This document shows, in pieces, positions 6,710-53,852 of a stretch of DNA of 64,000 nt (position 1 is the first letter of the stretch; every line of letters begins with the position of its first letter). The DNA is from a virus: positions 1 through 64,000 of the IMG/VR virus record IMGVR_UViG_3300022592_000003. One strand, given 5' to 3'. A model generated the notes under the pieces. That model was given only the letters and a program-made list of their open reading frames with translations, ran no database searches and was not told the origin of the DNA. The position numbers and the translations under genes are program-made.

Positions 6710-7531
6710 ATGGCTAACGATACGACTATTAATGCGGGACAAAATCCGGACCTAGCTAACAAGCTAGCCGCAGAAGCAATGAACGTCTCTGGCCAGGAAG
6801 TGGCTACTGGAAACCCTAAGCCTCCAGTTACGCCACCTCCTGGTACAGACGTTGAACTACTAGGTGGGTTGCTAGACCCATTTACAGGCCTAATCTCTAC
6901 AGCTGAGATTAGGGAACTTACTGGCTTAGATGAAGAAGCAGTCTCTAAGATCAGTGATCCAGGCAAGGCTCTTCTCAACATCCTAGAGCGTGCCACAGTA
7001 AAGATCGGAAATGAGCCGGCAACTCCAGAGCTTTTAGACGCTTTATATGCCGGAGACCGAGAGCTGCTACTCCTAGCTATTAGGAATGCAACCTTTGGTG
7101 CAGAGGTAAAGCTTGGGCCAGCAAACTGCCCTAAGTGTGATTTTGAACAGATTTATGAAATTGATTTAAGCAAGGATGTCCCACTCAAGAAGCTTGATGG
7201 GGACCGAGAATTTACTGTTAACTGCAAGGTTGGAGAGGTTGTCATTACCCTGCCTACTGGTATTACCCAGAAAGCATTTGTAACGTCTACCAACAAAACC
7301 AGCGCAGAGTTAGATACAATTCTTTTGAAGAACTGCATCAAGTCTATTAACGGCGCCCCCGTCATTAGCGTAGAGACCGTAAGGTCTTTAGGCATAAGGG
7401 ACCGCCGAGACATCTTGCAGGAGATTACAAACCGCAACCCAGGTCCACAACTCAACGAAATTAAAACTACATGTCAGTCTTGCGGGTCGGAGGTTCCGCT
7501 GCCACTTACGTTGGCGGATCTCTTTCGATAG
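6710..7531 (+). CDS. tail/baseplate assembly chaperone (T4 gp26-like, CxxC pairs)
   Basis: RELTGLDEE, GDRELLLLAIR, CPKC...CQSC; lies between tube and tape measure. Confidence 0.75.
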   Translation: MANDTTINAGQNPDLANKLAAEAMNVSGQEVATGNPKPPVTPPPGTDVELLGGLLDPFTGLISTAEIRELTGLDEEAVSKISDPGKALLNILERATVKIGNEPATPELLDALYAGDRELLLLAIRNATFGAEVKLGPANCPKCDFEQIYEIDLSKDVPLKKLDGDREFTVNCKVGEVVITLPTGITQKAFVTSTNKTSAELDTILLKNCIKSINGAPVISVETVRSLGIRDRRDILQEITNRNPGPQLNEIKTTCQSCGSEVPLPLTLADLFR

Positions 7532-7676
7532 CGAGATTGATTACGAAACCCTACTAGAGGTACAAGACTTATTAAGTCAACAGTACCCGGGGTGGTCGTT
7601 AAATGAGTTACGTTCTCTTAGTCCAAGAGAGCGAATGAACTGGTTAAATAAGGCACTATATAGAGTAAGGCGGTGA
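7524..7676 (+). CDS. start-less chaperone extension, probably reached by +1 frameshift
   Basis: FDSEIDYETLLEVQDLLSQQYPGWSLNELRSLSPRERMNWLNKALYRVRR*; no ATG/GTG/TTG between the in-frame stop at 7395 and the conserved W motif. Confidence 0.7.
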   Translation, partial: FDSEIDYETLLEVQDLLSQQYPGWSLNELRSLSPRERMNWLNKALYRVRR

Positions 7677-7680
7677 GTAA

Positions 7681-9831
7681 ATGGCAGGATCAGTAGGCAA
7701 TAACTTAGTAAACTCTTCAGATTCCCCAGAAGGTTTTGCATCAGTAGGGAAAGATTCTGCCTTTGAAGACATGCCTAAAGAACTTCTTAAGCTATTTAAA
7801 GAAGTTGAAAAGGTTGTTGACCGCATCTCTAAGAACTGGGCAAATACTTCTCAGGATATAAAGAAGACTGCTGGCTCTATTGGGTCAGATCAACCAGGTT
7901 CTGGACGTCTAGGTTTAGGATCATTTAGCAAAACAGAAAAAGCTGTTGGCATAGGTCTTGGTCTTGCAGCTGTAGGTTCTACCGCCATGTCTATGGCTCC
8001 AGATACTATGGCTGCAGTAACCCAGCGTATGGGTGCAGATACCTTTGCTGGTGTCAGCGGCATGAGTTCTCGCCAAGCTATTCTTCAAGCTAACCGTCAA
8101 GTAGGCGGTGGAGCTACCAGCGCTATGGGTCCAACCATGGCTGCTATGAATCTTTATTCAAGCGGTTATACTGCTAACTCTCTAAGTTCAAAGAACATTA
8201 TGAGTCAGCTTGGTGGCCTTAGTGCTATTACCGGCATGAGCAACGAACAAGCTGCCTCAAGTATGGCAAACATGAATGGTATGAGCTTTTTACGTGCCGG
8301 AATTCGTGTTCGTGATTCCAACGGAAACCTTCGTCCACCTAATCAATTAATTAATGAAGTTTATAACTTCTTGTATCGTGGTCGTCCTGTAACAAAGGAA
8401 CAAGCTGCCCTTGTAATGAACCCTGGCAGCAAGGGATATTCAACCCTTATGCAAATTACCGGTGGAGATACTGCACTGATGCAAACTCTTCAGTCAGGTA
8501 TTATGGCCCGTGCTTCTAACGGTAAGGGTCTTTCAGCATCACAAATGTCTGACCCAAACCAGATGTTAAATACTTTAGGTGTAGATCAAAGCAGTCCTAT
8601 TCGTGCAAACTTCCGGTATAACTCTAGCGAAAATAGTAAGCTAGCATCAACAGAGCAGGGTTTAGTTGGGGGCTATGACTCTAGTTTACGTACCGCATCA
8701 TCTCTTAATGATGCATATAGCAAAATGGCTAATCTTCTTGGACCTGTTAATCAAGGTTTAATGACTCTTAAAGGCATTCTTCAAACATTTCCTAATGCCG
8801 GTGGTATGGGCGGAACAGTTTCTAAAGTAGGCAGTACTGCTTTAGGCATAGGTTCAAATGTTCTTCAATACAAGATGATGAGTAAGTTTTTAAGCGGGGC
8901 TAAAAGTGGTGGGCCTTCGCTTTTGGGTAGACTAGGATCTTTCTTTAAAGGCCCTACGGGGGAAGAACTGCTAGCTATGGCAGAATCTGTAGGAGGTCCT
9001 ACCGATCACGGTAACTTAGGTACAGGTGCTTCTGGTGGATCACACCCAATGTCTTTTGCTAGCCCTGTTCCAAGAGGAACAACTATTACCTCTCCATTTG
9101 GACATCGCACATCTCCAGGTGGTAAAGGATCTACAGACCATAAAGGTATTGACTTTGGTACACCCGTAGGAAGTGCCCTTACCGCAATTACTAATGGACA
9201 CATTAGCTCTATCGGTAATGAAGCCATGGGTTATGGTAACTGGGTTGAAGTTCAACACGCTGATGGAACCAAGTCACGCTACGCACACATGTCCCAGATA
9301 AATGTATCTAGAGGACAAAAGGTTCGCCCTGGAGATATCATTGGACGATCTGGTGGTAAAGCTGGTGCACCAGGAGCAGGTAACTCTACTGGACCTCACC
9401 TTCACTTTGAACTTCTTAATGATAAGGGTGTAAAGATTAACCCAGCGCAGTACCTAAGCGGTGCTCCTGCATCCCCAATCAATGGTCATTCATCACCTAC
9501 AATAGGTCCTAAGGCTATCTCTGGACAATCTATGTCCGTAGTTAAGAAGTCAAACTATCCTGCAGTAGCAGGCACTGCTGATATATCTAGCCCAAGCTTA
9601 AGCTCGACACTAAGTACTCTTGGCCCTAATGAAGATGTTGGTGGTCCTATTGAAGGTATGAATGTAGGGCATAGCATGGGCGCTAACGGATCTAGATCTG
9701 CAGTTATTAATGTTAATATGAAGGTCTATATTCAACAGGGTTCAGTAGCAGAAGCAGAGCGCTTAGTTAAGGTATTTGGAGACAGATTGAAAACAAGTAA
9801 CGTTCTAGACACACTTGCGAGGTCATTGTAA
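7681..9831 (+). CDS. tape measure protein with M23 peptidase domain
   Basis: Ala/Gly/Met-rich helical N-terminus; ITSPFG, HKGID, YAHM, GNSTGPHLHFE. Confidence 0.9.
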   Translation: MAGSVGNNLVNSSDSPEGFASVGKDSAFEDMPKELLKLFKEVEKVVDRISKNWANTSQDIKKTAGSIGSDQPGSGRLGLGSFSKTEKAVGIGLGLAAVGSTAMSMAPDTMAAVTQRMGADTFAGVSGMSSRQAILQANRQVGGGATSAMGPTMAAMNLYSSGYTANSLSSKNIMSQLGGLSAITGMSNEQAASSMANMNGMSFLRAGIRVRDSNGNLRPPNQLINEVYNFLYRGRPVTKEQAALVMNPGSKGYSTLMQITGGDTALMQTLQSGIMARASNGKGLSASQMSDPNQMLNTLGVDQSSPIRANFRYNSSENSKLASTEQGLVGGYDSSLRTASSLNDAYSKMANLLGPVNQGLMTLKGILQTFPNAGGMGGTVSKVGSTALGIGSNVLQYKMMSKFLSGAKSGGPSLLGRLGSFFKGPTGEELLAMAESVGGPTDHGNLGTGASGGSHPMSFASPVPRGTTITSPFGHRTSPGGKGSTDHKGIDFGTPVGSALTAITNGHISSIGNEAMGYGNWVEVQHADGTKSRYAHMSQINVSRGQKVRPGDIIGRSGGKAGAPGAGNSTGPHLHFELLNDKGVKINPAQYLSGAPASPINGHSSPTIGPKAISGQSMSVVKKSNYPAVAGTADISSPSLSSTLSTLGPNEDVGGPIEGMNVGHSMGANGSRSAVINVNMKVYIQQGSVAEAERLVKVFGDRLKTSNVLDTLARSL

Positions 9832-11753
9832 TGGCTGCCACATTTTCATACTACTACACTGTAGACACCTATGTAAAATGGTCTACGATCCAAGACTCGG
9901 ATGAATCAGTTAGCGGTGTTGGTCAAGTAATTCTTGATGAGGTAATTGACTCTAACATGCCTGATTGGATACCTTTACATACTGAAAGTACAAACACAAC
10001 TGTTATCAAACACACCATTCAAAAAGGTTTTCAAATTAAATGGCGTGTACGATTTTACTGTAAAAAGGTAGATGGTTCTACAACTACATGGTATTGGCTA
10101 AGTGATGACGCCGTAACAAATGTGCATGCTAGTTTTGCAGCCTATAGAGGAAAAGTTAGTACTACTGATCCAAAAGTAAAAACATACCATGCAGGGGATG
10201 GAGTAACTACTGCATTTACTATTCCTAATACTACAGTAGTTAGTAACCCTACTGGTGGGGCCACATTTAGCTTTTGGTTAAACCCTACACAATCTAACTT
10301 TACTCTGTCTCCGGCTTTTGTTCTTAGTGCGGATATTCAAATAAACACCACAGATTTGTTGTCAAAATATGGTGGAGATTCAAACACAAATATTCAACAT
10401 GCTACTTTGCTTGGAGCAAACCCAAGTTTTACAGTATATGATGCTAAGCCTGTACCTTCTGCTACACCTCCTTCTTTAGAATCTGCTATTGAAATTTCAG
10501 GAAATAGCTTTAGTTATGCTTTTGATAGGTGTAATAATGATTGGTTCGGGTTATCAATAACCCCCACAAAAGCTACTTCTAACGGTGTTTTTTCTTATAG
10601 CTTTTTTACAGTTACATGTAAAGCTAATGGCACAGGGTTACAAAAATCATCAGTAGTTACTGAAACAGTAAAAGGAAACTTAACAAATAATAACGTCGGT
10701 TCTCAATTAAAAGCGGTAAGAAAAAAAATGCAGGCAGTACTTGTTGCCGATTGCTCTTCTCAATCAGGTGCTAACCCTGGTGGGGGAGGAGGAGGCGGTG
10801 GAGGCAATAACTCAGTGCCAAATACCGACAACTCTAGTACTACGGCTTCATCTGACCAACGATGGAATCCTCCTACCCACAGGTATAGTAGGGACATTCC
10901 TTATACACTTCGTTCTATAACTAACGATGTTTCTGATTCAATAAATCAAGGTATAAACTCGGACCTAAATGCTTTAGCTACACAGGCGTTGCTTGAAAGC
11001 GGCGCAGCTATTAAAGACTTTACTAGTCTACAAAATGGCCGGCTATTTCAAGATGCTTCTGGGGCACAGACTTTAAATACTAACCCAGATAAGCTTAAGT
11101 CTATTGATGCCATTAAAGGCCCAAAACAATGGGGATTTAGGTTTATGTATAACCCCACTACATTTGGATACCAGACAAGTTCAAATAACTCTGTAGACTT
11201 TACGTTTGGTGCAAAAGATCCTGCAACCCTTTTAGCTGGAAATCAAGACGTATCCTTCCAGCTATATATCAATAGAATCCCAGATATGGCTTATCTACAT
11301 AGCTTGGCTAATGGCAACTCTAGAATAAATATCTCTGAGTCCTTTGCTTACGGTCGAGCCTTATATCCAGAAGAAAAAGCCGGTCTTTTAAACCGTGGCA
11401 CGGAATACGACATTGAGTTTATTTATCGTGTTCTGAATGGTGACCCCACATCAAAGCCGCTGCTTTTTAGCCAAGACTATCAGGGCTTAACTGCAGACTT
11501 TGGGTACACTACCGCTACTCCATGCTGGCTAGTGCTTAATGATAACCTTAGGTACTACGGCTCTGTATCTAGTTTGGATGTTAACCATGTTATGTTTGAC
11601 CTTAATATGGTCCCAATCTTAACAACCGTAACTATCCACTTCTCTCGTATCCCTGCTCTTTGGAATGGTACGGCTGCCGGAGGATACAGCCGAGCTGACC
11701 TACAAAATAAGCTATCTGGTAACCTTATCGGTACCCCAACTACTACATCGTGA
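9831..11753 (+). CDS. tail tube initiator/baseplate-associated protein
   Basis: C-terminal FRFMYNPT...V.H.MF...MVP pattern; follows the tape measure gene. Confidence 0.55.
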   Translation: MAATFSYYYTVDTYVKWSTIQDSDESVSGVGQVILDEVIDSNMPDWIPLHTESTNTTVIKHTIQKGFQIKWRVRFYCKKVDGSTTTWYWLSDDAVTNVHASFAAYRGKVSTTDPKVKTYHAGDGVTTAFTIPNTTVVSNPTGGATFSFWLNPTQSNFTLSPAFVLSADIQINTTDLLSKYGGDSNTNIQHATLLGANPSFTVYDAKPVPSATPPSLESAIEISGNSFSYAFDRCNNDWFGLSITPTKATSNGVFSYSFFTVTCKANGTGLQKSSVVTETVKGNLTNNNVGSQLKAVRKKMQAVLVADCSSQSGANPGGGGGGGGGNNSVPNTDNSSTTASSDQRWNPPTHRYSRDIPYTLRSITNDVSDSINQGINSDLNALATQALLESGAAIKDFTSLQNGRLFQDASGAQTLNTNPDKLKSIDAIKGPKQWGFRFMYNPTTFGYQTSSNNSVDFTFGAKDPATLLAGNQDVSFQLYINRIPDMAYLHSLANGNSRINISESFAYGRALYPEEKAGLLNRGTEYDIEFIYRVLNGDPTSKPLLFSQDYQGLTADFGYTTATPCWLVLNDNLRYYGSVSSLDVNHVMFDLNMVPILTTVTIHFSRIPALWNGTAAGGYSRADLQNKLSGNLIGTPTTTS

Positions 11754-45154: not shown

Positions 45155-45316
45155 ATGGCTAAAAAGATTCTTACACCAGAGGGTTCACCAATGGACTATA
45201 AGGTACAGAAGCTAAAGGCTAAGACTTCAGAAGATAAGATCCGAGAAGAACTTAAAGCCAAAGCCGCAACAACAGACAAGAAGTCGCCAGCTAAAAAGAA
45301 AGCAGGAAAGAAATAA
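45155..45316 (+). CDS. 53-aa Lys-rich protein (not in ORF track)
   Basis: GGAG RBS; ends KKSPAKKKAGKK*. Confidence 0.7.
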   Translation: MAKKILTPEGSPMDYKVQKLKAKTSEDKIREELKAKAATTDKKSPAKKKAGKK

Positions 45317-45522
45317 TGGGTATTCGTAGCTTTATACGAGATCGTAAACCTGTAAACGCTTTTCGTGGATCAGAAAACGGAAACGCAGGAAGAGAATCTG
45401 CCTCAAGCTATGTTAATAGAACAAGCAATGATTCTACTTCTGATTGGTCCGGCAGTGTTTGGGATGAGGGCGGTTCTTGGCACCCTAAAAAAAGCGGCTT
45501 ACTAGGAAACGCAGAGGACTAA
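45316..45522 (+). CDS. small protein, N-terminal-motif family copy 1
   Basis: FIRDRKPVNAFRGSENGNAGRESA. Confidence 0.7.
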   Translation: MGIRSFIRDRKPVNAFRGSENGNAGRESASSYVNRTSNDSTSDWSGSVWDEGGSWHPKKSGLLGNAED

Positions 45523-45524
45523 AC

Positions 45525-45935
45525 ATGGGACTTCGTAATTTTGTACGCAACCGTAAGCAGGTAACTGCATCTCGTGCTACCGAAGATGGTGGCGCCGGTC
45601 GTGAGGCAGCACAACGTCATGCTGGTATGGTTCCACCACCACCTGGCATGGATAAGGTTTCTCAATGGCAGCAGTCTCAACGTATGCAGGGTTTGCTTGC
45701 TCAAAAAGATCGTCCTGTACACAATGACACTCGTCCTGATTGGGAACGTCAAGGCTTTAAGTCTGAAAACCATATGAATGAGAATAAAGAATTTACTGCT
45801 AAGGTTCAGGCAGATTACGCAGCTAGAGAACACGCTAAGTCATGGCCTGCAAGGGAAAAAGAACTTCGTGAATCTAGCCCATCACCACAGGGTGGTCTTG
45901 TAAACCGTGCAATTCGGGAAGCAAAGGGCTACTAA
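45525..45935 (+). CDS. small protein, N-terminal-motif family copy 2
   Basis: FVRNRKQVTASRATEDGGAGREAA. Confidence 0.75.
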   Translation: MGLRNFVRNRKQVTASRATEDGGAGREAAQRHAGMVPPPPGMDKVSQWQQSQRMQGLLAQKDRPVHNDTRPDWERQGFKSENHMNENKEFTAKVQADYAAREHAKSWPAREKELRESSPSPQGGLVNRAIREAKGY

Positions 45936-45937
45936 GT

Positions 45938-46081
45938 ATGAAGATGGTAGATAGCTACGTTCGTAAGCGTAAGCAAGTAAAGGCTGACCGAGCCACTGAA
46001 CAAGGTGTTGCTGGACATAAGGCTGCAATGGAAGCATTGCGACCTAACAAAATCGAAAAGGATGAAAACAATGGCCGTTAA
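45938..46081 (+). CDS. 47-aa protein, N-terminal-motif family copy 3 (not in ORF track)
   Basis: YVRKRKQVKADRATEQGVAGHKAA. Confidence 0.7.
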   Translation: MKMVDSYVRKRKQVKADRATEQGVAGHKAAMEALRPNKIEKDENNGR

Positions 46082-47490: not shown

Positions 47491-48072
47491 ATGGCTATTC
47501 CAATTTTAGGCCAAGGCGGCGGCGCTGCCGATGAAGGCACATATACAGAGATCAAGGACGATGGTCCTAAGATTCGTCTGCTCTATTGCTATAACTGCCG
47601 CACAATCGAGGAACTCCCTGACTTTGAGGGTAACCCCGATGATGACGTCTTGCTGCAGGTACTCGTTGATAAGCATGAGTCTGCCGGCATTCCACACACT
47701 GGCTTCTTATCTAAGATCGGTGTAAAACTATACTCACGTCCTGAGGTACGCAAGCAAGTAATCGAAAACCTACGCAACAAGGTAGGTGGCGGCCTTGCTG
47801 ATATTGACCCAGACTATTACACAACCAAGGCCACATTCGGTGATGATGCTATGAAGTGCTTTAACCTTCATATGCGTCCTTCACAGGGTTGTATGGATTG
47901 GAAGCGTGAAAACAAGCGTCTTATTCCTAAGGGTACAGACGATATCCGTAAAGAATTAGGTCTGGAGAGTGCAGCAAAGTCTGCTAGTACAAAGGTTTAC
48001 CTTTGCGACTTCTGCCCTGCTAAGACCTATGTAGTTGAACAAAACCGTAAAAAAATGGGACTATACGAATAG
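47491..48072 (+). CDS. zinc-binding hypothetical protein
   Basis: CYNC, C...H...C, CDFC; AAGGAG RBS. Confidence 0.75.
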   Translation: MAIPILGQGGGAADEGTYTEIKDDGPKIRLLYCYNCRTIEELPDFEGNPDDDVLLQVLVDKHESAGIPHTGFLSKIGVKLYSRPEVRKQVIENLRNKVGGGLADIDPDYYTTKATFGDDAMKCFNLHMRPSQGCMDWKRENKRLIPKGTDDIRKELGLESAAKSASTKVYLCDFCPAKTYVVEQNRKKMGLYE

Positions 48073-48403: not shown

Positions 48404-49318
48404 ATGGACTTTGAGAATTATGGAGACGTACCCAGCATTACACCTGGGTCTACTTCCTATTTCAGTGCGCCTTCTTCCGAGCTTGATCCAAAGCTCTTTC
48501 AGGGAGATCATCTCAACGCTTGGGTACGTTCCGGCATCCTAAATATGCTCTTTGAGTATTTGGTGAAGTATTACGCTGATCCACATGCTTGGGTGCATGC
48601 TTGGCTTGCAGGCTCTGGAGTCTCCTATCAATGGGAGGCTTCCAGAGAACCTGGCGATCTAGATTGCTTGGTTGGAATTGACTATGTCAAGTTCCGTCAG
48701 AGTAATCCTGAGTTTACCGGCTACTCCGATGTTGAGATCTCAAAGACTTTCAACGAAGGTTTCAATGGGGACCTAATGCCTAAGACCCGTAACTGGGAAG
48801 GCTATGAGCTTACATACTATGTAAACCCACAGTCAGACATTAGGGATATTAATCCTTATGCAGCTTATGATCTCACTGCAGATTCTTGGACTGTATATCC
48901 GGAGCATAACCCACAGCCGCCATACAGCCGTGCATGGGAACAGAAAACCCAGCGGGATGAAGACATGGCCCAGGATATGTTAAAGAAGTATGCGGATGCC
49001 TTGAACGAGGTACGCAATACTGCTAATCCGGCTTATCGTGTAAACGCAGAGCGAAAGCTACGTCTTGCTATGGAGCAGGCTTCAGCTTTCTATGATGATA
49101 TTCACCAGAACCGTAAAGTTGCTTTCAGCAAGACCGGATCTGGATACGCAGACTTCAACAATTACCGTTGGCAGGCTGGTAAGCGTTCTGGAGTAATCCA
49201 GGCGTTACGCTCTATTAAAGAACATAAGACCGCACTAGATACAGAGACACAGAAGCAAACCTACGGAATAGAGCTGCCAGATGCTGCAACCCTAGTCCGG
49301 AGAACTTTGCGTGGCTAA
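48404..49318 (+). CDS. Pol-beta superfamily nucleotidyltransferase
   Basis: WLAGSGVSYQW...GDLDCLV (hGS...DxD) plus a downstream YEL strand. Confidence 0.8.
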   Translation: MDFENYGDVPSITPGSTSYFSAPSSELDPKLFQGDHLNAWVRSGILNMLFEYLVKYYADPHAWVHAWLAGSGVSYQWEASREPGDLDCLVGIDYVKFRQSNPEFTGYSDVEISKTFNEGFNGDLMPKTRNWEGYELTYYVNPQSDIRDINPYAAYDLTADSWTVYPEHNPQPPYSRAWEQKTQRDEDMAQDMLKKYADALNEVRNTANPAYRVNAERKLRLAMEQASAFYDDIHQNRKVAFSKTGSGYADFNNYRWQAGKRSGVIQALRSIKEHKTALDTETQKQTYGIELPDAATLVRRTLRG

Positions 49319-49409
49319 GTGTAAAAACTGTAAGCACCCCATGGAATACGGGGTATGTGAGGTCGAAAACTGTAATTGTATTTGTGAACGCAATTTATCG
49401 GAGGACTAA
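49311..49409 (+). CDS. 32-aa Cys-rich microprotein (not in ORF track)
   Basis: GGAG RBS; MAKCKNCKHPMEYGVCEVENCNCICERNLSED*. Confidence 0.55.
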   Translation: MAKCKNCKHPMEYGVCEVENCNCICERNLSED

Positions 49410-49874
49410 ATGGCTACGGCACTCATCTCAGTAGAGGGAGTAATGAAGACCGAAGGTGGGGACCCGATTCAAGAGGGTATCCGACTCTATCGCATCCTGG
49501 CTGAACACTATCGGGTGGTAATCTGCTCCGACCTATCTGAAGACCTAACAGAGCATTGGCTACGAGCCAATATGATTGTCGGCTATGCCGATATCTATGA
49601 CACTCGCCATTTCTTTGAGGGTCAGGATTTGCGGGCCCGACACCTAGACCTAGCTTTACAGCGGGGTCGAGTAGCTCTATTTGTAGATCCCGATGCGGAT
49701 CGGTGCGCCTATGCACTCTCTAAGAACGTAACTACTCTCATGTTTGCTGAACCTAAGTTTGTCCGTACAACCCGTATGGTCAAGCCTTGGGACGAGCTGA
49801 AGGTTGAGATTGAACGTCAGCGGGATGCCCTTCTTGATGCTCACCTCGGAAGTCAGATTAAGCGGTACGAATGA
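49410..49874 (+). CDS. HAD-fold protein with degenerate motif I
   Basis: ALISVEGVM (in place of hhDhDGVh), PI.EG..LY, VVICS, LFVD.D. Confidence 0.6.
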   Translation: MATALISVEGVMKTEGGDPIQEGIRLYRILAEHYRVVICSDLSEDLTEHWLRANMIVGYADIYDTRHFFEGQDLRARHLDLALQRGRVALFVDPDADRCAYALSKNVTTLMFAEPKFVRTTRMVKPWDELKVEIERQRDALLDAHLGSQIKRYE

Positions 49875-51349
49875 ACATTGTCTTCATGGGCGGTGAAGTA
49901 CCCTCACACAGGATCCTCCTGGCTAATGCCGGAGTTAAGCACATCAGCGTCAACTACTTCAGGTTGGTAAAGCGTGGTCTCCCAAAGACCAAAGACTACC
50001 TACTTAAAGAGCGGTTCCCTGATGACGTCCTCATCTATGTAGATGGCGGCGGCCACCAGATCAATGATCTCAACATGACACAGCGGGAGCTCGAAGAGTA
50101 TGCCGCTGACTACCAGGACTTCATTACTATTAATGAGGATAGAATCCACCTCGCAACCGAGTTGGATGCCAAAGCTTTGGGCCCTAACTGGATCAACCAC
50201 CAGCGTCGTACCTTTTGGGAGGATTTTGGCCTAGAGCGTGCCTCTATGGTGTGGCACTCAGAAACAGGCCATACTGGTCTCTACAACCTCGCAGAGCAAT
50301 ATCTCAACGTTTCTATCTTGGGTGAGTCTATCGAGGACGATACGAGCCTCTCAGCCCGTTCTAGGGCCCTTTTGAGCCAGTTTCCTGACCTGCAGTTCCA
50401 TGGTGTAGCATGTGCTAAGCCAGATAATTTGAGGCAGGTACCGGTAACCACAGCTGCTACCCTTTCTTGGCTAAGTCCTATGATGAGAGGTGAGACAATT
50501 GTCTGGGATGGCACTAGACTAGTCCGCTACCAGAAGAAACAGAAAGACCAGGCTCGACCCCGCTACAAGGCGATCATCGAGAAGGCTGGGCTGGACTTTG
50601 ACAAGATTATTAATGACGATAGTAACGAGGTTACCCGCCTCGCCATCTGGAGTTATCTGCAGCTAGAGAATTCATTAGACAAGCAAAGGAAGCCCATGTT
50701 ATCTGATCAGAGTGATCCACTAGATAGTGCAGGTTCTGCGGAAACTAGGGGTATCAGTCCTGATAACAGAGGGTCTGAGGTGCGGAAAGATTTGACCGCC
50801 CGCAAGCCTGAAGACATGCAAACCCTGCCAGTTTTCGGGGTTACGAATAAGACTATTTTCGAGAAAGACGTTGATGGCAGGGATGTTATCAGGGAGGCTC
50901 CGGTATTAGAGAGCACCCATACTTCCTTCCGTCAGTGCAACACCTGCTTCGTTGCAAGCAATTGTCCGGCCTTCAAACCGAACAATTCTTGTGCCTTCAG
51001 CCTCCCGGTAGAGATTAAGACCAAGGAGCAGTTGAAGGGATTACTCAACGCAATTATCGAAATGCAGGGCGCTAGAGTCGCTTTTGCACGTTTTGCGGAG
51101 GAATTAAACGGCGGATACCCGGATCCAAACACCGGGCAGGAGATTGACCGACTCTTTAAGATCGTAAATGAGGTCAAGAAGTTAGAGGAGAACAAGGAGG
51201 TTCTCCGCATGACGGTGGAGCGTCAAAGCTCAGGAGGAGTCATGTCAGCACTATTCGGAGACCGGGCCAACACCCTAAAGGAGTTGTCTGGAAATGGGTT
51301 AAGTGAAGGGGACGCCAGCAAAATAATCAAAGACCAATTAGAAGGATAG
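49871..51349 (+). CDS. TGT/DpdA-like TIM-barrel protein fused to a 4-Cys/helical C-terminal domain
   Basis: IYVDGGG (cf. hDSGG), FHG, LSWL...RG; C-terminal CNTC.....C........C. Confidence 0.55.
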   Translation: MNIVFMGGEVPSHRILLANAGVKHISVNYFRLVKRGLPKTKDYLLKERFPDDVLIYVDGGGHQINDLNMTQRELEEYAADYQDFITINEDRIHLATELDAKALGPNWINHQRRTFWEDFGLERASMVWHSETGHTGLYNLAEQYLNVSILGESIEDDTSLSARSRALLSQFPDLQFHGVACAKPDNLRQVPVTTAATLSWLSPMMRGETIVWDGTRLVRYQKKQKDQARPRYKAIIEKAGLDFDKIINDDSNEVTRLAIWSYLQLENSLDKQRKPMLSDQSDPLDSAGSAETRGISPDNRGSEVRKDLTARKPEDMQTLPVFGVTNKTIFEKDVDGRDVIREAPVLESTHTSFRQCNTCFVASNCPAFKPNNSCAFSLPVEIKTKEQLKGLLNAIIEMQGARVAFARFAEELNGGYPDPNTGQEIDRLFKIVNEVKKLEENKEVLRMTVERQSSGGVMSALFGDRANTLKELSGNGLSEGDASKIIKDQLEG

Positions 51350-51389: not shown

Positions 51390-53420
51390 GTGTTTTCGTT
51401 TAAACTAGCAGAAGATTTTGTCAGTTCCTATCGTTCGAAGAAGGTCCCCTGGGGTTACCAGGATGCTGCGGGTAACTCCGTAGGCGAGATTACTTTCTTG
51501 CGTACCTACTCCCGTCTTAAAGAGGACGGAACCAAGGAAACTTGGACAGATGTATGTGAGCGTGTCATTGACGGCATGTATTCACTTCAGAAAGACCACG
51601 CCAAGCAGAACCGTCTGCCTTGGTCTGACGTTAAGGCCGCTTCCTCAGCGAAGGAAGCCTTTGACCGCCTCTGGAACCTAAAGTGGACTCCACCCGGCCG
51701 TGGCCTATGGATGATGGGTACACCCCTCGTCAATGTTCAGAAGAACTCTGCAGCGTTGCAGAACTGCTCCTTTGTATCTACAAATGCTATGACCAAGATT
51801 GACCCAGCCAAGCCTTTCGCCTTCCTTATGGAGGCATCTATGCTGGGAGTCGGTGTTGGCTTTGATGATAAGGGGGCAGATAAAGACTTTACTATCTACC
51901 CTTGCGAAGCAGGAGAAACATATGTCATCCCCGACACCCGAGAAGGCTGGGTTGAATCCACAGCCGCCCTCATCAATTCTTACCTTAAGCCAGATACGAA
52001 GTGCCCTGTATTTGACTACTCACAAATCCGACCAGCCGGTACTCCGATTAAAACCTTTGGAGGCACCGCAGCCGGAGCAGAACCGCTAATCAAACTCCAC
52101 AACCATATCTCTAGGATCTTTGGAAGTCGTGCCGGTGACAAGCTCACCCGTCGTGACATTGCAGATCTTGGAAACCTTATTGGCGTTTGCGTAGTATCCG
52201 GTAACGTCCGCCGCTCAGCAGAGCTTCTCATTGGTCGTATTGACGATGAGGAATTTCTGAACTTAAAGAATGCTGAAGCATTCCCAGAGCGTAACTCCTA
52301 CGATCCAGAGAATCCTGGTTGGGGTTGGATGTCTAACAACTCTGTCGAGGTATCTGTCGGTCAGGACCTAACCCCCATCATTGAGGGTATTGCCCGCAAC
52401 GGTGAGCCTGGCGTAATCTGGATGGATGTAACCCGTAAGTACGGTCGTCTTGCAGATCCTGAGAACAACAAGGACTGGCGTGCAGCTGGGTACAACCCAT
52501 GTGCAGAGCAGTCATTGGAATCAATGGAGTGCTGTACTTTGGTTGAGACATATATCAATCGTCACGACAGCCTAGAGGATTTCAAGCGCACCTTGAAATT
52601 CGCATACCTCTACGCTAAAACAGTTACTTTGATCCCTACGCACTGGGAGGAGACCAACGCTATCATGCAGCGTAACCGCCGCATCGGTACGTCAATCTCC
52701 GGTATCGCCAACTTTGCCGATACAAAGGGTCTCCCACTCCTTCGTACATGGATGGATGAGGGTTACAAGGTAGTAACTAGCTATGACAAGAGTTACTCTG
52801 AATGGCTCGGCATCCGTGAATCAATCAAGATGACAACTGTAAAGCCATCCGGCACAGTCTCAATCTTGGCTGGAGAATCTCCAGGAGTTCACTGGACCCC
52901 AGGCGGCGAGTACTTCCTTCGTACCATCCGCTTTGCTAACAATGACCCTATGTTGCCTCTATTTAAGATGGCTAACTACCGCATTGAGCCTTCGAGTACC
53001 GACCCAGATAATACCTCAGTCGTATACTTCCCGATCAAGTCTCAGGCCCAGCGTTCTGAGAAGGATGTCTCTATTTACGAGAAGATGGCACTGGCAGCTA
53101 CTGCCCAGCGTTACTGGTCAGATAACTCTGTATCTGTAACCGTGTCGTTTAATCCTAAGACTGAGGCCGAAGCTATTGGCACCGTACTGCACATGTACGA
53201 TGGTCAATTAAAGACCGTATCATTCCTTGCTATGGATGATACTCTTTATCCCCAAATGCCGTACACCCAGAGTACTGCTGAGGAATATGAAGCAGCAACT
53301 GCAAGTCTTTTTCCAATTGACCTAGCTGGTGTCTACGCAGGTATGGCCTTCGATGCTATCGGAGAAGCGTACTGCACAACAGATGCTTGCGAAATTAAGT
53401 TGGTAAAGGACAATCAGTAA
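51390..53420 (+). CDS. nrdJ: class II (B12-dependent) ribonucleotide reductase
   Basis: PPGRGLW, NC, GNVRRSA, NPCAEQ.L, TTVKPSGT, C-terminal C....C. Confidence 0.95.
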   Translation: MFSFKLAEDFVSSYRSKKVPWGYQDAAGNSVGEITFLRTYSRLKEDGTKETWTDVCERVIDGMYSLQKDHAKQNRLPWSDVKAASSAKEAFDRLWNLKWTPPGRGLWMMGTPLVNVQKNSAALQNCSFVSTNAMTKIDPAKPFAFLMEASMLGVGVGFDDKGADKDFTIYPCEAGETYVIPDTREGWVESTAALINSYLKPDTKCPVFDYSQIRPAGTPIKTFGGTAAGAEPLIKLHNHISRIFGSRAGDKLTRRDIADLGNLIGVCVVSGNVRRSAELLIGRIDDEEFLNLKNAEAFPERNSYDPENPGWGWMSNNSVEVSVGQDLTPIIEGIARNGEPGVIWMDVTRKYGRLADPENNKDWRAAGYNPCAEQSLESMECCTLVETYINRHDSLEDFKRTLKFAYLYAKTVTLIPTHWEETNAIMQRNRRIGTSISGIANFADTKGLPLLRTWMDEGYKVVTSYDKSYSEWLGIRESIKMTTVKPSGTVSILAGESPGVHWTPGGEYFLRTIRFANNDPMLPLFKMANYRIEPSSTDPDNTSVVYFPIKSQAQRSEKDVSIYEKMALAATAQRYWSDNSVSVTVSFNPKTEAEAIGTVLHMYDGQLKTVSFLAMDDTLYPQMPYTQSTAEEYEAATASLFPIDLAGVYAGMAFDAIGEAYCTTDACEIKLVKDNQ

Positions 53421-53647
53421 TGGTAACCGTATACAGCAATCCAAATTGCTCACAATGCGAGGCTACTAAGCGCTTTCTTACTTTGAAGGAGATTCCTTTC
53501 GAAGCTAAGATGCTGGAGGATTCTCCAGAGATTATGCCACTGATCAAGGAGAAGGGGTACAAGGTAGCTCCTGTAGTAGTTACCGATACCGATTCGTGGT
53601 CAGGCTTTAAACTAGACAAGCTAAACGAACTAGCAGAAACCGCCTAA
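53420..53647 (+). CDS. nrdH: NrdH-like glutaredoxin
   Basis: VTVYS.P.CSQC..TKR.L, APVV, WSGF. Confidence 0.92.
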   Translation: MVTVYSNPNCSQCEATKRFLTLKEIPFEAKMLEDSPEIMPLIKEKGYKVAPVVVTDTDSWSGFKLDKLNELAETA

Positions 53648-53655
53648 GGAGAACC

Positions 53656-53799
53656 ATGTCAGACGATCTAAACCCAGACCTATTCGATGAAGACTTCGAA
53701 GATGACTTCGAAGACGGCCTTGATGAACTAGACCTCGATGATGAGGACCTAGATGACCTCGAAGCAGACCTCGCAGATGACGAGGATGTAGAGGCCTAA
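53656..53799 (+). CDS. 47-aa hyper-acidic protein (not in ORF track)
   Basis: AAGGAG RBS; MSDDLNPDLFDEDFEDDFEDGLDELDLDDEDLDDLEADLADDEDVEA*. Confidence 0.75.
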   Translation: MSDDLNPDLFDEDFEDDFEDGLDELDLDDEDLDDLEADLADDEDVEA

Positions 53800-53820: not shown

Positions 53821-53852
53821 TGGCCCCCGACTCAATGAAGAGCCGGGGGCCA
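53821..53852. terminator. hairpin terminator at the convergence of the + and - operons
   Basis: TGGCCCCCGACTC-aatgaa-GAGCCGGGGGCCA; fully paired with a G-U on the minus strand. Confidence 0.8.

Follow-up and report, generated by a model that had tools for sequence, protein, structure and literature searches.

A clade of phage DpdA-like proteins that has lost the nucleophilic aspartate and gained constant partner genes

The DNA considered here, referred to as the window, is a stretch of 64,000 nucleotides of viral origin and represents the first 64 kb of the 89,242-bp IMG/VR record IMGVR_UViG_3300022592_000003, for which CheckV gives a completeness of 89%. The window contains a cassette of four genes, which encode a nucleotidyltransferase (NTase), a Cys-rich micropeptide, a HAD-like protein and a 492-amino-acid (aa) protein related to the tRNA-guanine transglycosylases (TGTs) and to the DpdA proteins. 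The barrel of this TGT-like protein derives from a two-domain phage DpdA lineage, in which the barrel is accompanied by a four-cysteine tail domain, and one clade of this lineage has lost both the nucleophilic Asp and the genes for preQ0. The same Asp-less clade has gained a constant HAD-like partner that is itself devoid of a nucleophile, a Cys-rich partner of 193 aa, here called up193, and in most cases also an NTase of the Pol-beta type. Because its pocket is remodelled but still conserved, the barrel most probably serves a new purpose, either as a guanine-directed reader of nucleic acid or as a guanine-directed enzyme.

Fold and sequence relationships of the barrel

The TGT-like protein was modelled with AlphaFold2 on an alignment of 109 diverse homologues (27-94% identity). 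The predicted local distance difference test score (pLDDT) exceeds 95 over residues 1-275, and beyond these lie a disordered linker, a beta-hairpin, a Cys cluster and long helices. When the model was searched with Foldseek, the top 50 rows were all Z. mobilis TGT, with a best E of 1.3e-5. A comparison of the barrel model with 48,161 representative chains by VIA-align placed archaeosine TGT (arcTGT) first (Z 18.0, root-mean-square deviation (rmsd) 3.5, 258 residues aligned), followed by DpdA (7ui4; Z 17.3, rmsd 3.6, 259 aligned), the Cap10 subunit of a Cap10-CdnD complex (9ntn_B; Z 16.7, rmsd 3.6, 242 aligned), bacterial TGT (Z 16.1) and QTRT2 (Z 15.2). Since these top five matches all belong to the TGT superfamily, the generic TIM barrels that follow reach only Z ≤13.6, and Foldseek agrees, the predicted structure supports a (beta/alpha)8 barrel of the TGT/DpdA superfamily.

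Sequence comparisons point to phage DpdA-type proteins as the nearest relatives. The PHROG family phrog_887, labelled 'queuine tRNA-ribosyltransferase', matches the TGT-like protein over its full length (E 1.2e-50), and tblastn against phage records retrieved BRock-like Streptomyces phages at 30-32% identity, also over the full length, and weakly Bacillus phage BCD7. In BCD7, the 757-aa protein gp021 is encoded next to genes for GTP cyclohydrolase (FolE) and for QueC-like, QueE-like and QueD-like proteins. Alignment of the 109-sequence profile to gp021 by hhalign gave a probability of 99.85 and an E of 1.1e-30 over 258 columns, pairing the motifs VDGGG with IDSGAY, TELD with VELD, VWH with VWH, FHG with IHG and TAATLSW with TGDSTTW, such that Ala196 of the TGT-like protein falls opposite the nucleophilic Asp of gp021. 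No match to the protein was obtained from the Pfam TGT and NCBIfam models, in hhalign the family profile matched E. coli Tgt over just 25 columns at the DSG motif, a non-significant result, and phmmer and profile searches of PDB sequences, in which the barrel was also queried with the 109-sequence profile, yielded no TGT, NTase or HAD match of note. The family is large: a library clustered at 50% identity contains 846 representatives that match the TGT-like protein at E ≤0.001. The genome of the window has one TGT-like gene. Two homologues, P0245 and P0255, carry an N-terminal HNH endonuclease domain, which could have come about by fusion or could reflect a wrongly called start next to a homing endonuclease.

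Separation of the Asp-less clade

Two collections of loci were compared. Set 1 consists of 80 closely related IMG/VR loci, and set 2 of 77 loci found in a scan of viral contigs for distant family members, of which 71 are Asp-less and six (L158-L163) have Asp at the nucleophile position. This position lies four residues before an invariant Trp, and in the 109-sequence alignment it is occupied by Ser in 50 sequences, Ala in 17, Thr in 15, Gly in 14, other residues in 12 and Asp in one. A non-acidic residue is thus found in 108 of the 109 diverse relatives, and likewise in all 69 set-2 loci apart from the six Asp-bearing ones.

The gene content of the loci divides along the same line. QueC is present in all five of the L158-L163 records examined, and these Asp-bearing loci have neither an NTase nor up193 within 7 kb and no HAD-like neighbour, except for a marginal match in L161 (E 2e-4). 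Among five complete Asp-less genomes none has QueC, and the whole 89,242-bp record of the window gave no match to QueC, GTP_cyclohydroI (FolE), PTPS (QueD-type), Radical_SAM or Pfam TGT; the full preQ0 gene set was looked for in the window's genome and QueC in its relatives. In a FastTree phylogeny of 177 barrel sequences, rooted on BCD7 and restricted to sequences with at least 180 aligned barrel residues (which leaves out L163, among others), the 170 Asp-less sequences together with a single Asp-bearing one, P0257, form one clade with a support of 0.83.

The tail domain is older than this split. Its four cysteines (C356, C359, C365 and C374) are invariant in all 109 TGT-like homologues, and the domain is present in the Asp-bearing relatives too, fused to the barrel in three and encoded by a separate open reading frame (ORF) in three. 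Since it accompanies Asp-bearing, QueC-linked barrels, it is ancestral to this DpdA subfamily and not a novelty of the cassette. A search among short proteins for stand-alone tail domains retrieved only fragments of the TGT-like protein from short contigs. In L159, L160 and L162 (approximately 7001-9900 in each), a barrel ORF of 295-341 aa is followed 0.5-1.3 kb downstream by a tail ORF of 204-212 aa.

The proteins of the gp021 type and of L158-L163 therefore share with the window's protein the homologous barrel, with its DSG, E-x-D, H-G and S/T-W-L motifs, and in L158-L163 also the tail, fused or split. They differ in having Asp at the nucleophile position and QueC in their genomes, where the window's clade has Ala, Ser, Thr or Gly and no QueC was found, and the window's clade has in turn a Trp at position 128, an acid at position 208 and its HAD-like, Cys-rich and NTase partners. 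BCD7 does have a neighbouring NTase of its own (gp015), but neither this protein nor gp016 and gp020 are related to the NTase or the HAD-like protein of the window.

The initial annotation had seen TGT/DpdA motifs in the 492-aa protein and the usual Asp apparently replaced in TAATLSW, had found no folE, queC, queD or queE in the window, and had concluded that this was not a standard 7-deazaguanine system. The fold is borne out by Foldseek and VIA-align, and the replacement by the profile alignment to a pathway-linked DpdA. The absence of the genes extends from the window to the entire record. By its residues and gene content, the cassette is accordingly judged not to be a 7-deazaguanine system.

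Remodelling of the pocket

The roles of the pocket residues can be taken from DpdA of Salmonella, for which the portion of the published account drawn on here (PMC10164549) assigns D95 as the general acid/base, D130 and H181 as readers of the base edge, F99 and L236 as residues that stack on the base, and D256 as the nucleophile. The same portion of that account describes three Asp residues as invariant across both the TGT family and that of DpdA. By spacing and alignment, D95, D130, H181, F99, L236 and D256 correspond to D58, D99, H129, H62, H177 and A196 of the window's protein. An ungapped comparison with E. coli Tgt, read by eye and carrying no statistics, likewise places A196 opposite the Asp of FDCV; in Z. 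mobilis TGT the nucleophile is D280.

Two of the three aspartates are therefore in place. The putative general acid/base, D58 in VDGGG, is kept in 73 of the 109 relatives, and the base-edge-reading D99, in TELD, in 91. Among 69 Asp-less loci of a soil clade, D99 and W128 are conserved in all 69, D58 in 67, H177 in 63, and H129 and an acid at 208 in 61 each. W128, constant in this clade, is replaced by Ile, Met or Leu in the Asp-bearing forms. The acid at 208, either Asp or Glu and located eight residues after the invariant Trp, is present in 106 of the 109 family members; in the tree set it occurs in 158 of 170 Asp-less as against two of seven Asp-bearing sequences. The clade counts for W128 and residue 208 are not independent observations, because they descend from a single evolutionary event. 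The pocket residues of the barrel are equally conserved in loci with and without the NTase. Taken together, the residue patterns indicate a pocket that is remodelled but still conserved, not decayed.

Inteins provide a further view of the important positions. Inserts of the LAGLIDADG type occur at three sites in family members outside the window (P0343, P0296, P0334 and P0283), which in the numbering of the window's protein lie before T209, before C359 and before C374, and are matched by the Pfam models Intein_splicing and LAGLIDADG_3. That of P0343 is inserted exactly between residue 208 and T209. Inteins are typically inserted at conserved, important positions, and T209, C359 and C374 are probably positions of this kind.

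Partner proteins

The HAD-like protein is the most constant partner. In each of the 80 set-1 loci its ORF is immediately adjacent to the barrel gene (76 by tblastn and four by aligned ORFs), and it is the neighbour of the barrel in 70 of the 71 Asp-less loci of set 2, so that the HAD-like protein and the Asp-less barrel form the core pair of the system, usually with up193 upstream. A homologue is found in GiJojo (E 2e-10); tblastn of the window's protein against phage records gave no match. The stretch that resembles motif I follows the pattern h-h-h-x-h-(D/E/N/S/W/P)-G-V, where h is hydrophobic, and has the nucleophilic Asp in no sequence examined: provided that motif I corresponds to the G-V(L/M) stretch, the nucleophile position holds Ser, Ala, Val, Thr, Ile or similar and the second position Asp, Glu, Asn, Ser, Trp or Pro. 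In the window's protein SVEGV stands in place of DxDG. The leads to the HAD fold are weak and comprise phrog_415, a polynucleotide kinase family (E 0.0074), PDB entry 3u26 (E 0.097 and 0.12), a similarity of ESM features of 0.90 to NIF/HAD clusters, and a PF00702 match in one of 53 members. An hhalign comparison of the HAD-like profile with E. coli GmhB revealed no similarity. In one close relative (L005:5477-6004), an ORF of 175 aa with 12 Cys lies between the HAD-like and TGT-like genes.

The second partner, up193, has tblastn matches in 77 of the 80 set-1 loci and is encoded by GiJojo and BRock at 28% identity. A hidden Markov model search found it in 69 of the 77 set-2 loci, including all 16 that have no NTase; the six Asp-bearing loci gave no match. 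Residues C33, H62, C123, C172 and C175 are invariant, and searches of Pfam, PHROG, PADLOC and PDB gave no match.

NTases of the Pol-beta superfamily are characterized by the motif hG[GS] x9-13 Dh[DE]h and a third carboxylate on an alpha/beta core. In the cassette's NTase the corresponding G70, S71, D85, D87 and E135 are invariant across 53 homologues, leaving the GS..DxD..E signature intact. In the AlphaFold2 model (pLDDT 88.9) a helical bundle comes after an alpha/beta core, and residues 42-157 match two minimal NTases, 1ylq_B (Z 7.1, rmsd 3.1, 88 residues aligned) and HI0073 (1no5_B; Z 6.1). By its motifs and its predicted core, the 304-aa protein is a Pol-beta-type NTase. Its N-terminal 35 residues are conserved, mostly coil, and contain the invariant S18, Y19, F20 and S21. 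The Pfam family DUF6932 gives a sub-threshold match in 25 of the 53 members (best E 2.8e-4), and the window's protein is 41% identical to gp178 of GiJojo. In BFVD, 11 viral proteins combine the NTase and helical-bundle folds at E ≤0.001; ten of them are distant (15-18% identity) and one is a close homologue (48%). They include an 812-aa protein annotated as 'Amidoligase enzyme' and one of 884 aa, so that this type of NTase occurs also within larger multidomain phage proteins, in some cases as a fusion with an amidoligase.

The NTase lies upstream of the rest of the cassette in 79 of the 80 set-1 loci, and 54 of the 71 distant Asp-less loci have it at a distance of 7 kb or less. A search of five complete genomes that have the HAD-like/barrel pair found no NTase, and as a positive control the same search detected it in all five control genomes. 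The NTase is thus a frequent but dispensable partner, and its candidacy as an obligatory catalytic centre was rejected. The Cys6 micropeptide was in the same way rejected as a core component. Nine homologues keep its six Cys, the His and an acidic tail, but among the 80 set-1 loci it is detected in just seven by tblastn and nine by ORF pattern, and the slot elsewhere is empty or filled by unrelated CxxC (zinc-finger) micro-ORFs.

These results modify the module that was first proposed. All the motifs quoted in the initial annotation (GS..DLD, SVEGV, VDGGG, FHG, TAATLSW and the four Cys) are present in the translations, and its assignment of an intact Pol-beta NTase agrees with the invariant residues and the structural core match. 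Its four coupled genes are real as ORFs and are joined by tight junctions, and those other than the Cys6 peptide gene are linked in nearly all of the 80 set-1 loci, as well as in related phages that include BRock and GiJojo of Streptomyces. As to composition, the linkage of NTase, HAD-like and TGT-like genes stands, while the Cys microprotein proves not to be core and up193 had been overlooked. The idea that two pseudo-enzymes recognize the substrate on behalf of the NTase is weakened, given that five complete genomes keep the pair without the NTase and that the pocket is equally conserved in either case.

Possible functions

We tentatively favour the reading that guanine-directed recognition of nucleic acid, probably of DNA, is the task of the TGT-like protein, which would have the HAD-like and Cys-rich proteins as partners and the NTase as an accessory. 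According to this proposal, the protein would be unable to form a covalent Asp-C1' intermediate, from which it would follow that it does not insert 7-deazaguanine. It would still engage a flipped-out guanine-like base in nucleic acid, because the pocket is mostly kept and W128 and the acid at 208 have been gained specifically in this clade. DNA is the probable target on account of the DpdA ancestry and the position of the gene at the end of a replication/nrdJ transcription unit. The TGT-like protein may then be the subunit responsible for recognition within a small complex that also contains the HAD-like and Cys-rich proteins, and the NTase, where present, may contribute an accessory nucleotidyl-transfer step. 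Several observations weigh against this proposal. P0257 is the sole sequence among the 109 relatives to have Asp at the nucleophile position. D58 varies within the window's own freshwater clade (n = 18; Asp in 11, His in four, Tyr in two and Glu in one), and the pocket may therefore be less constrained there than in the soil clade. The HAD fold of the 154-aa protein, which is indicated by weak leads, is unproven. Finally, the conserved gene order could in part reflect a general colinearity of related genomes instead of functional coupling.

Precedents exist for the retention of the TGT fold by proteins that are not transglycosylases, among which the parts of the sources consulted here list QTRT2 (6fv5), ArcS (PMC10516641) and Cap10 (bioRxiv 10.1101/2025.04.06.647259). 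QTRT2, the non-catalytic subunit of the eukaryotic TGT according to the title of entry 6FV5, keeps the fold without transglycosylase chemistry, but does so as the partner of a catalytic paralogue, whereas the window's genome encodes a single TGT-like protein. Bacterial DpdA, described in the consulted portion of PMC10164549 (structure 7UI4) as the DNA preQ0 insertase of the Dpd system, resembles the window's protein in its TIM barrel and in the counterparts of D95, D130, H181 and the stacking positions. It differs in that its nucleophile D256 has no equivalent in the window, where a DpdB partner and a supply of preQ0 are lacking too, and even the 109-sequence profile of the window's protein finds no sequence-level match in the PDB.

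A possible but doubtful alternative is that the protein is still an enzyme, with Asp/Glu 208 replacing the lost Asp either as the nucleophile or as the activator of a water molecule, such that a DNA base, not necessarily a 7-deazaguanine, would be exchanged or excised and the HAD-like protein and NTase would supply or process the substrate. The near-constancy of the acid at 208 in the family and its scarcity among Asp-bearing sequences are consistent with this role, as are the intein of P0343 at precisely this point and the strong conservation of the pocket. On the other hand, the general acid/base D58 is variable in the window's clade; no base-synthesis genes were found in the 89-kb record; and the co-variation that singles out residue 208 reflects one evolutionary event and not a series of independent ones. 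A more far-reaching reading, which the sequences make conceivable although we consider it rather unlikely, is that the Asp-less clade together with its pseudo-HAD and Cys-rich partners makes up a novel type of actinophage machine directed at guanine in DNA. The barrel would in this case be either a relocated-carboxylate enzyme, with a chemistry on DNA bases that is not known from any TGT-fold protein, or a reader that flips bases and marks the phage genome to be replicated, packaged or protected, with the NTase in either case contributing a nucleotidyl group in most lineages.

Recognition or repair of tRNA or other RNA is improbable. In this scheme tRNA binding, in the manner of TGT, would fall to the barrel and the rebuilding of 3' ends to the NTase, and in the HAD-like protein one would see the relic of a phosphatase of the polynucleotide kinase type. 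The fold is indeed common to the tRNA transglycosylases, the weak match of the HAD-like protein to phrog_415 points in this direction, and in BRock the long operon that holds the cassette includes, at another place, a gene for an RNA ligase. The nearest sequence relatives of the barrel, however, are preQ0-linked phage proteins of the DNA-acting DpdA type, the HAD-like protein has neither of the catalytic Asp residues, and the NTase is dispensable.

A still smaller likelihood attaches to a relationship of the Cap10 kind, in which the TGT-fold protein would bind the NTase or its tail and control or modify it, for instance through a protein-linked nucleobase, in signalling or counter-defence. Cap10 belongs to the type IV cyclic-oligonucleotide-based antiphage signalling systems (CBASS; 9NTN) and, in the section of the preprint used here (bioRxiv 10.1101/2025.04.06.647259), is a host defence protein that keeps the catalytic Asp248 and His226 and that needs both the QueC-like Cap9 and an N-terminal Gly-rich tail on its cGAS/DncV-like nucleotidyltransferase (CD-NTase). 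The resemblance lies in the pairing of a TGT fold with a Pol-beta-superfamily NTase for a purpose other than tRNA modification, in the rank of Cap10 among the top structural matches of the barrel, in the proximity of the two genes and in the N-terminal coil of the NTase with its four invariant residues. The top Foldseek matches of the NTase are also CD-NTases, although the best of these, CdnD (6p82; E 0.02, TM score 0.26, rmsd 18), is not significant, and no CD-NTase is among the VIA-align matches listed for the NTase. The window's system departs from that of Cap10 at nearly every component: no Cap9 is encoded in the record, the NTase does not begin with the M(G/S)G(G/S)GG sequence, PADLOC reports nothing, the catalytic Asp that Cap10 keeps is missing, and five complete genomes retain the barrel and its pocket without any NTase. 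That the protein is a canonical DpdA, by which preQ0 made in the host or some other 7-deazaguanine enters the phage DNA, is hardly credible, for although the phrog_887 and GenBank labels and the presence of two of the three invariant Asp residues speak for it, the nucleophile given as invariant in the consulted part of PMC10164549 is missing here and in 108 of 109 relatives, no preQ0 genes occur in the window's genome nor QueC in five complete relatives, and the Pfam TGT and NCBIfam models find no match.

The conserved remodelled pocket, the constant partner genes and the inteins at three conserved sites suggest a real, selected function in phages of Actinomycetota. A 2023 survey of phage 7-deazaguanines, in the part consulted (PMC10516641), proposed that a DpdA family protein is a signature of this DNA modification. 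The Asp-less clade constitutes a large exception to that proposal: the representative search gave 846 matches, and 108 of the 109 diverse full-length sequences examined are devoid of the attacking Asp. Database and GenBank labels such as 'queuine tRNA-ribosyltransferase' and, for the GiJojo homologue, 'dpdA-like' nonetheless persist on Asp-less proteins. A literature search found no paper that describes the Asp-less clade; supplementary tables of phage DpdA homologues lay outside that search and may bear on the point. The analysis brings out the division between Asp-bearing forms with QueC and Asp-less forms without it, the dispensability of the NTase, W128 and the acid at 208, the three intein sites and the match to Cap10. 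Since the cassette is present in the cultured Streptomyces phages BRock and GiJojo, its function is directly testable.

Genomic context

The features of the cassette and its surroundings are collected in Table 1. The junctions are tight: the NTase and Cys6 peptide genes overlap by 8 nucleotides, the Cys6 peptide and HAD-like genes abut, and the HAD-like and TGT-like genes overlap by 4 nucleotides (ATGA). A pattern scan detected no terminator-like site between 48404 and 51390, and the first strong hairpin lies at 53821-53852.

Table 1. Positions of the cassette genes, their domains and the flanking genes in the window
Feature	Position	Strand	Remarks
up193, Cys/His-rich 193-aa protein	47491..48072	+	no known family; upstream partner of cassette
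Pol-beta-superfamily NTase, 304 aa	48404..49318	+	predicted NTase core N-terminal, helical bundle C-terminal; motifs intact
Cys6(+His) zinc-finger-like micropeptide, 32 aa, GTG start	49311..49409	+	from ORF list; variable slot
HAD-like protein, 154 aa, without motif-I nucleophile Asp	49410..49874	+	
TGT-like protein, 492 aa	49871..51349	+	barrel and 4-Cys tail
TGT/DpdA-superfamily TIM barrel (predicted), residues 1-276, Ala196 at nucleophile position	49871..50698	+	
Disordered linker (approximately residues 280-320), beta-hairpin, CxxC-x5-C-x8-C, helical tail domain	50699..51349	+	
Class II ribonucleotide reductase (nrdJ) and NrdH-like redoxin	51390..53647	+	downstream of cassette

The nrdJ gene, which starts at 51390, matches Pfam RNR_Alpha (E 1.6e-27) and RNR-II_ins_dom (E 1.6e-16) as well as phrog_367 (E 2.3e-137), and is found 3' of the cassette in 77 of the 80 set-1 loci. 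PHROG matches place tail genes at 1-20 kb of the window and replication genes at 21-38 kb. The cassette occupies the far end of the + strand unit that holds the replication genes, and the order is the same in BRock, where the TGT-like gene also stands at the end of the replication operon. Judged by its recurrence in the 80 set-1 loci, the arrangement of the cassette is far beyond chance. A blastn search with the region against phage records gave no match, and Pfam, NCBIfam and PADLOC returned nothing for the four cassette proteins.

Of eight matches in bacterial genome assemblies, seven fall in Actinomycetota (Streptomyces, Nonomuraea, Actinomadura, Herbidospora and Terracoccus). The remaining match is to a 115-kb contig binned as Saccharibacteria (CAYUUT010000003.1, 115,445 bp, in a metagenome-assembled genome of Candidatus Saccharibacteria), which carries the cassette, is sized like these phage genomes and is probably a mis-binned phage contig. 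In Streptomyces phage pSt2308 (PV588686.1), the TGT-like gene (408-1820) is the first gene of the deposited genome, although the start of the record may be arbitrary.

Two further features of the window lie outside the cassette. At 45316-46081, three small ORFs in tandem (68, 136 and 47 aa) have a similar N-terminal motif of about 25 aa and unrelated C-termini. Directly 3' of the NrdH-like gene, at 53656-53799, an ORF of 47 aa consists almost entirely of Asp/Glu and Leu.

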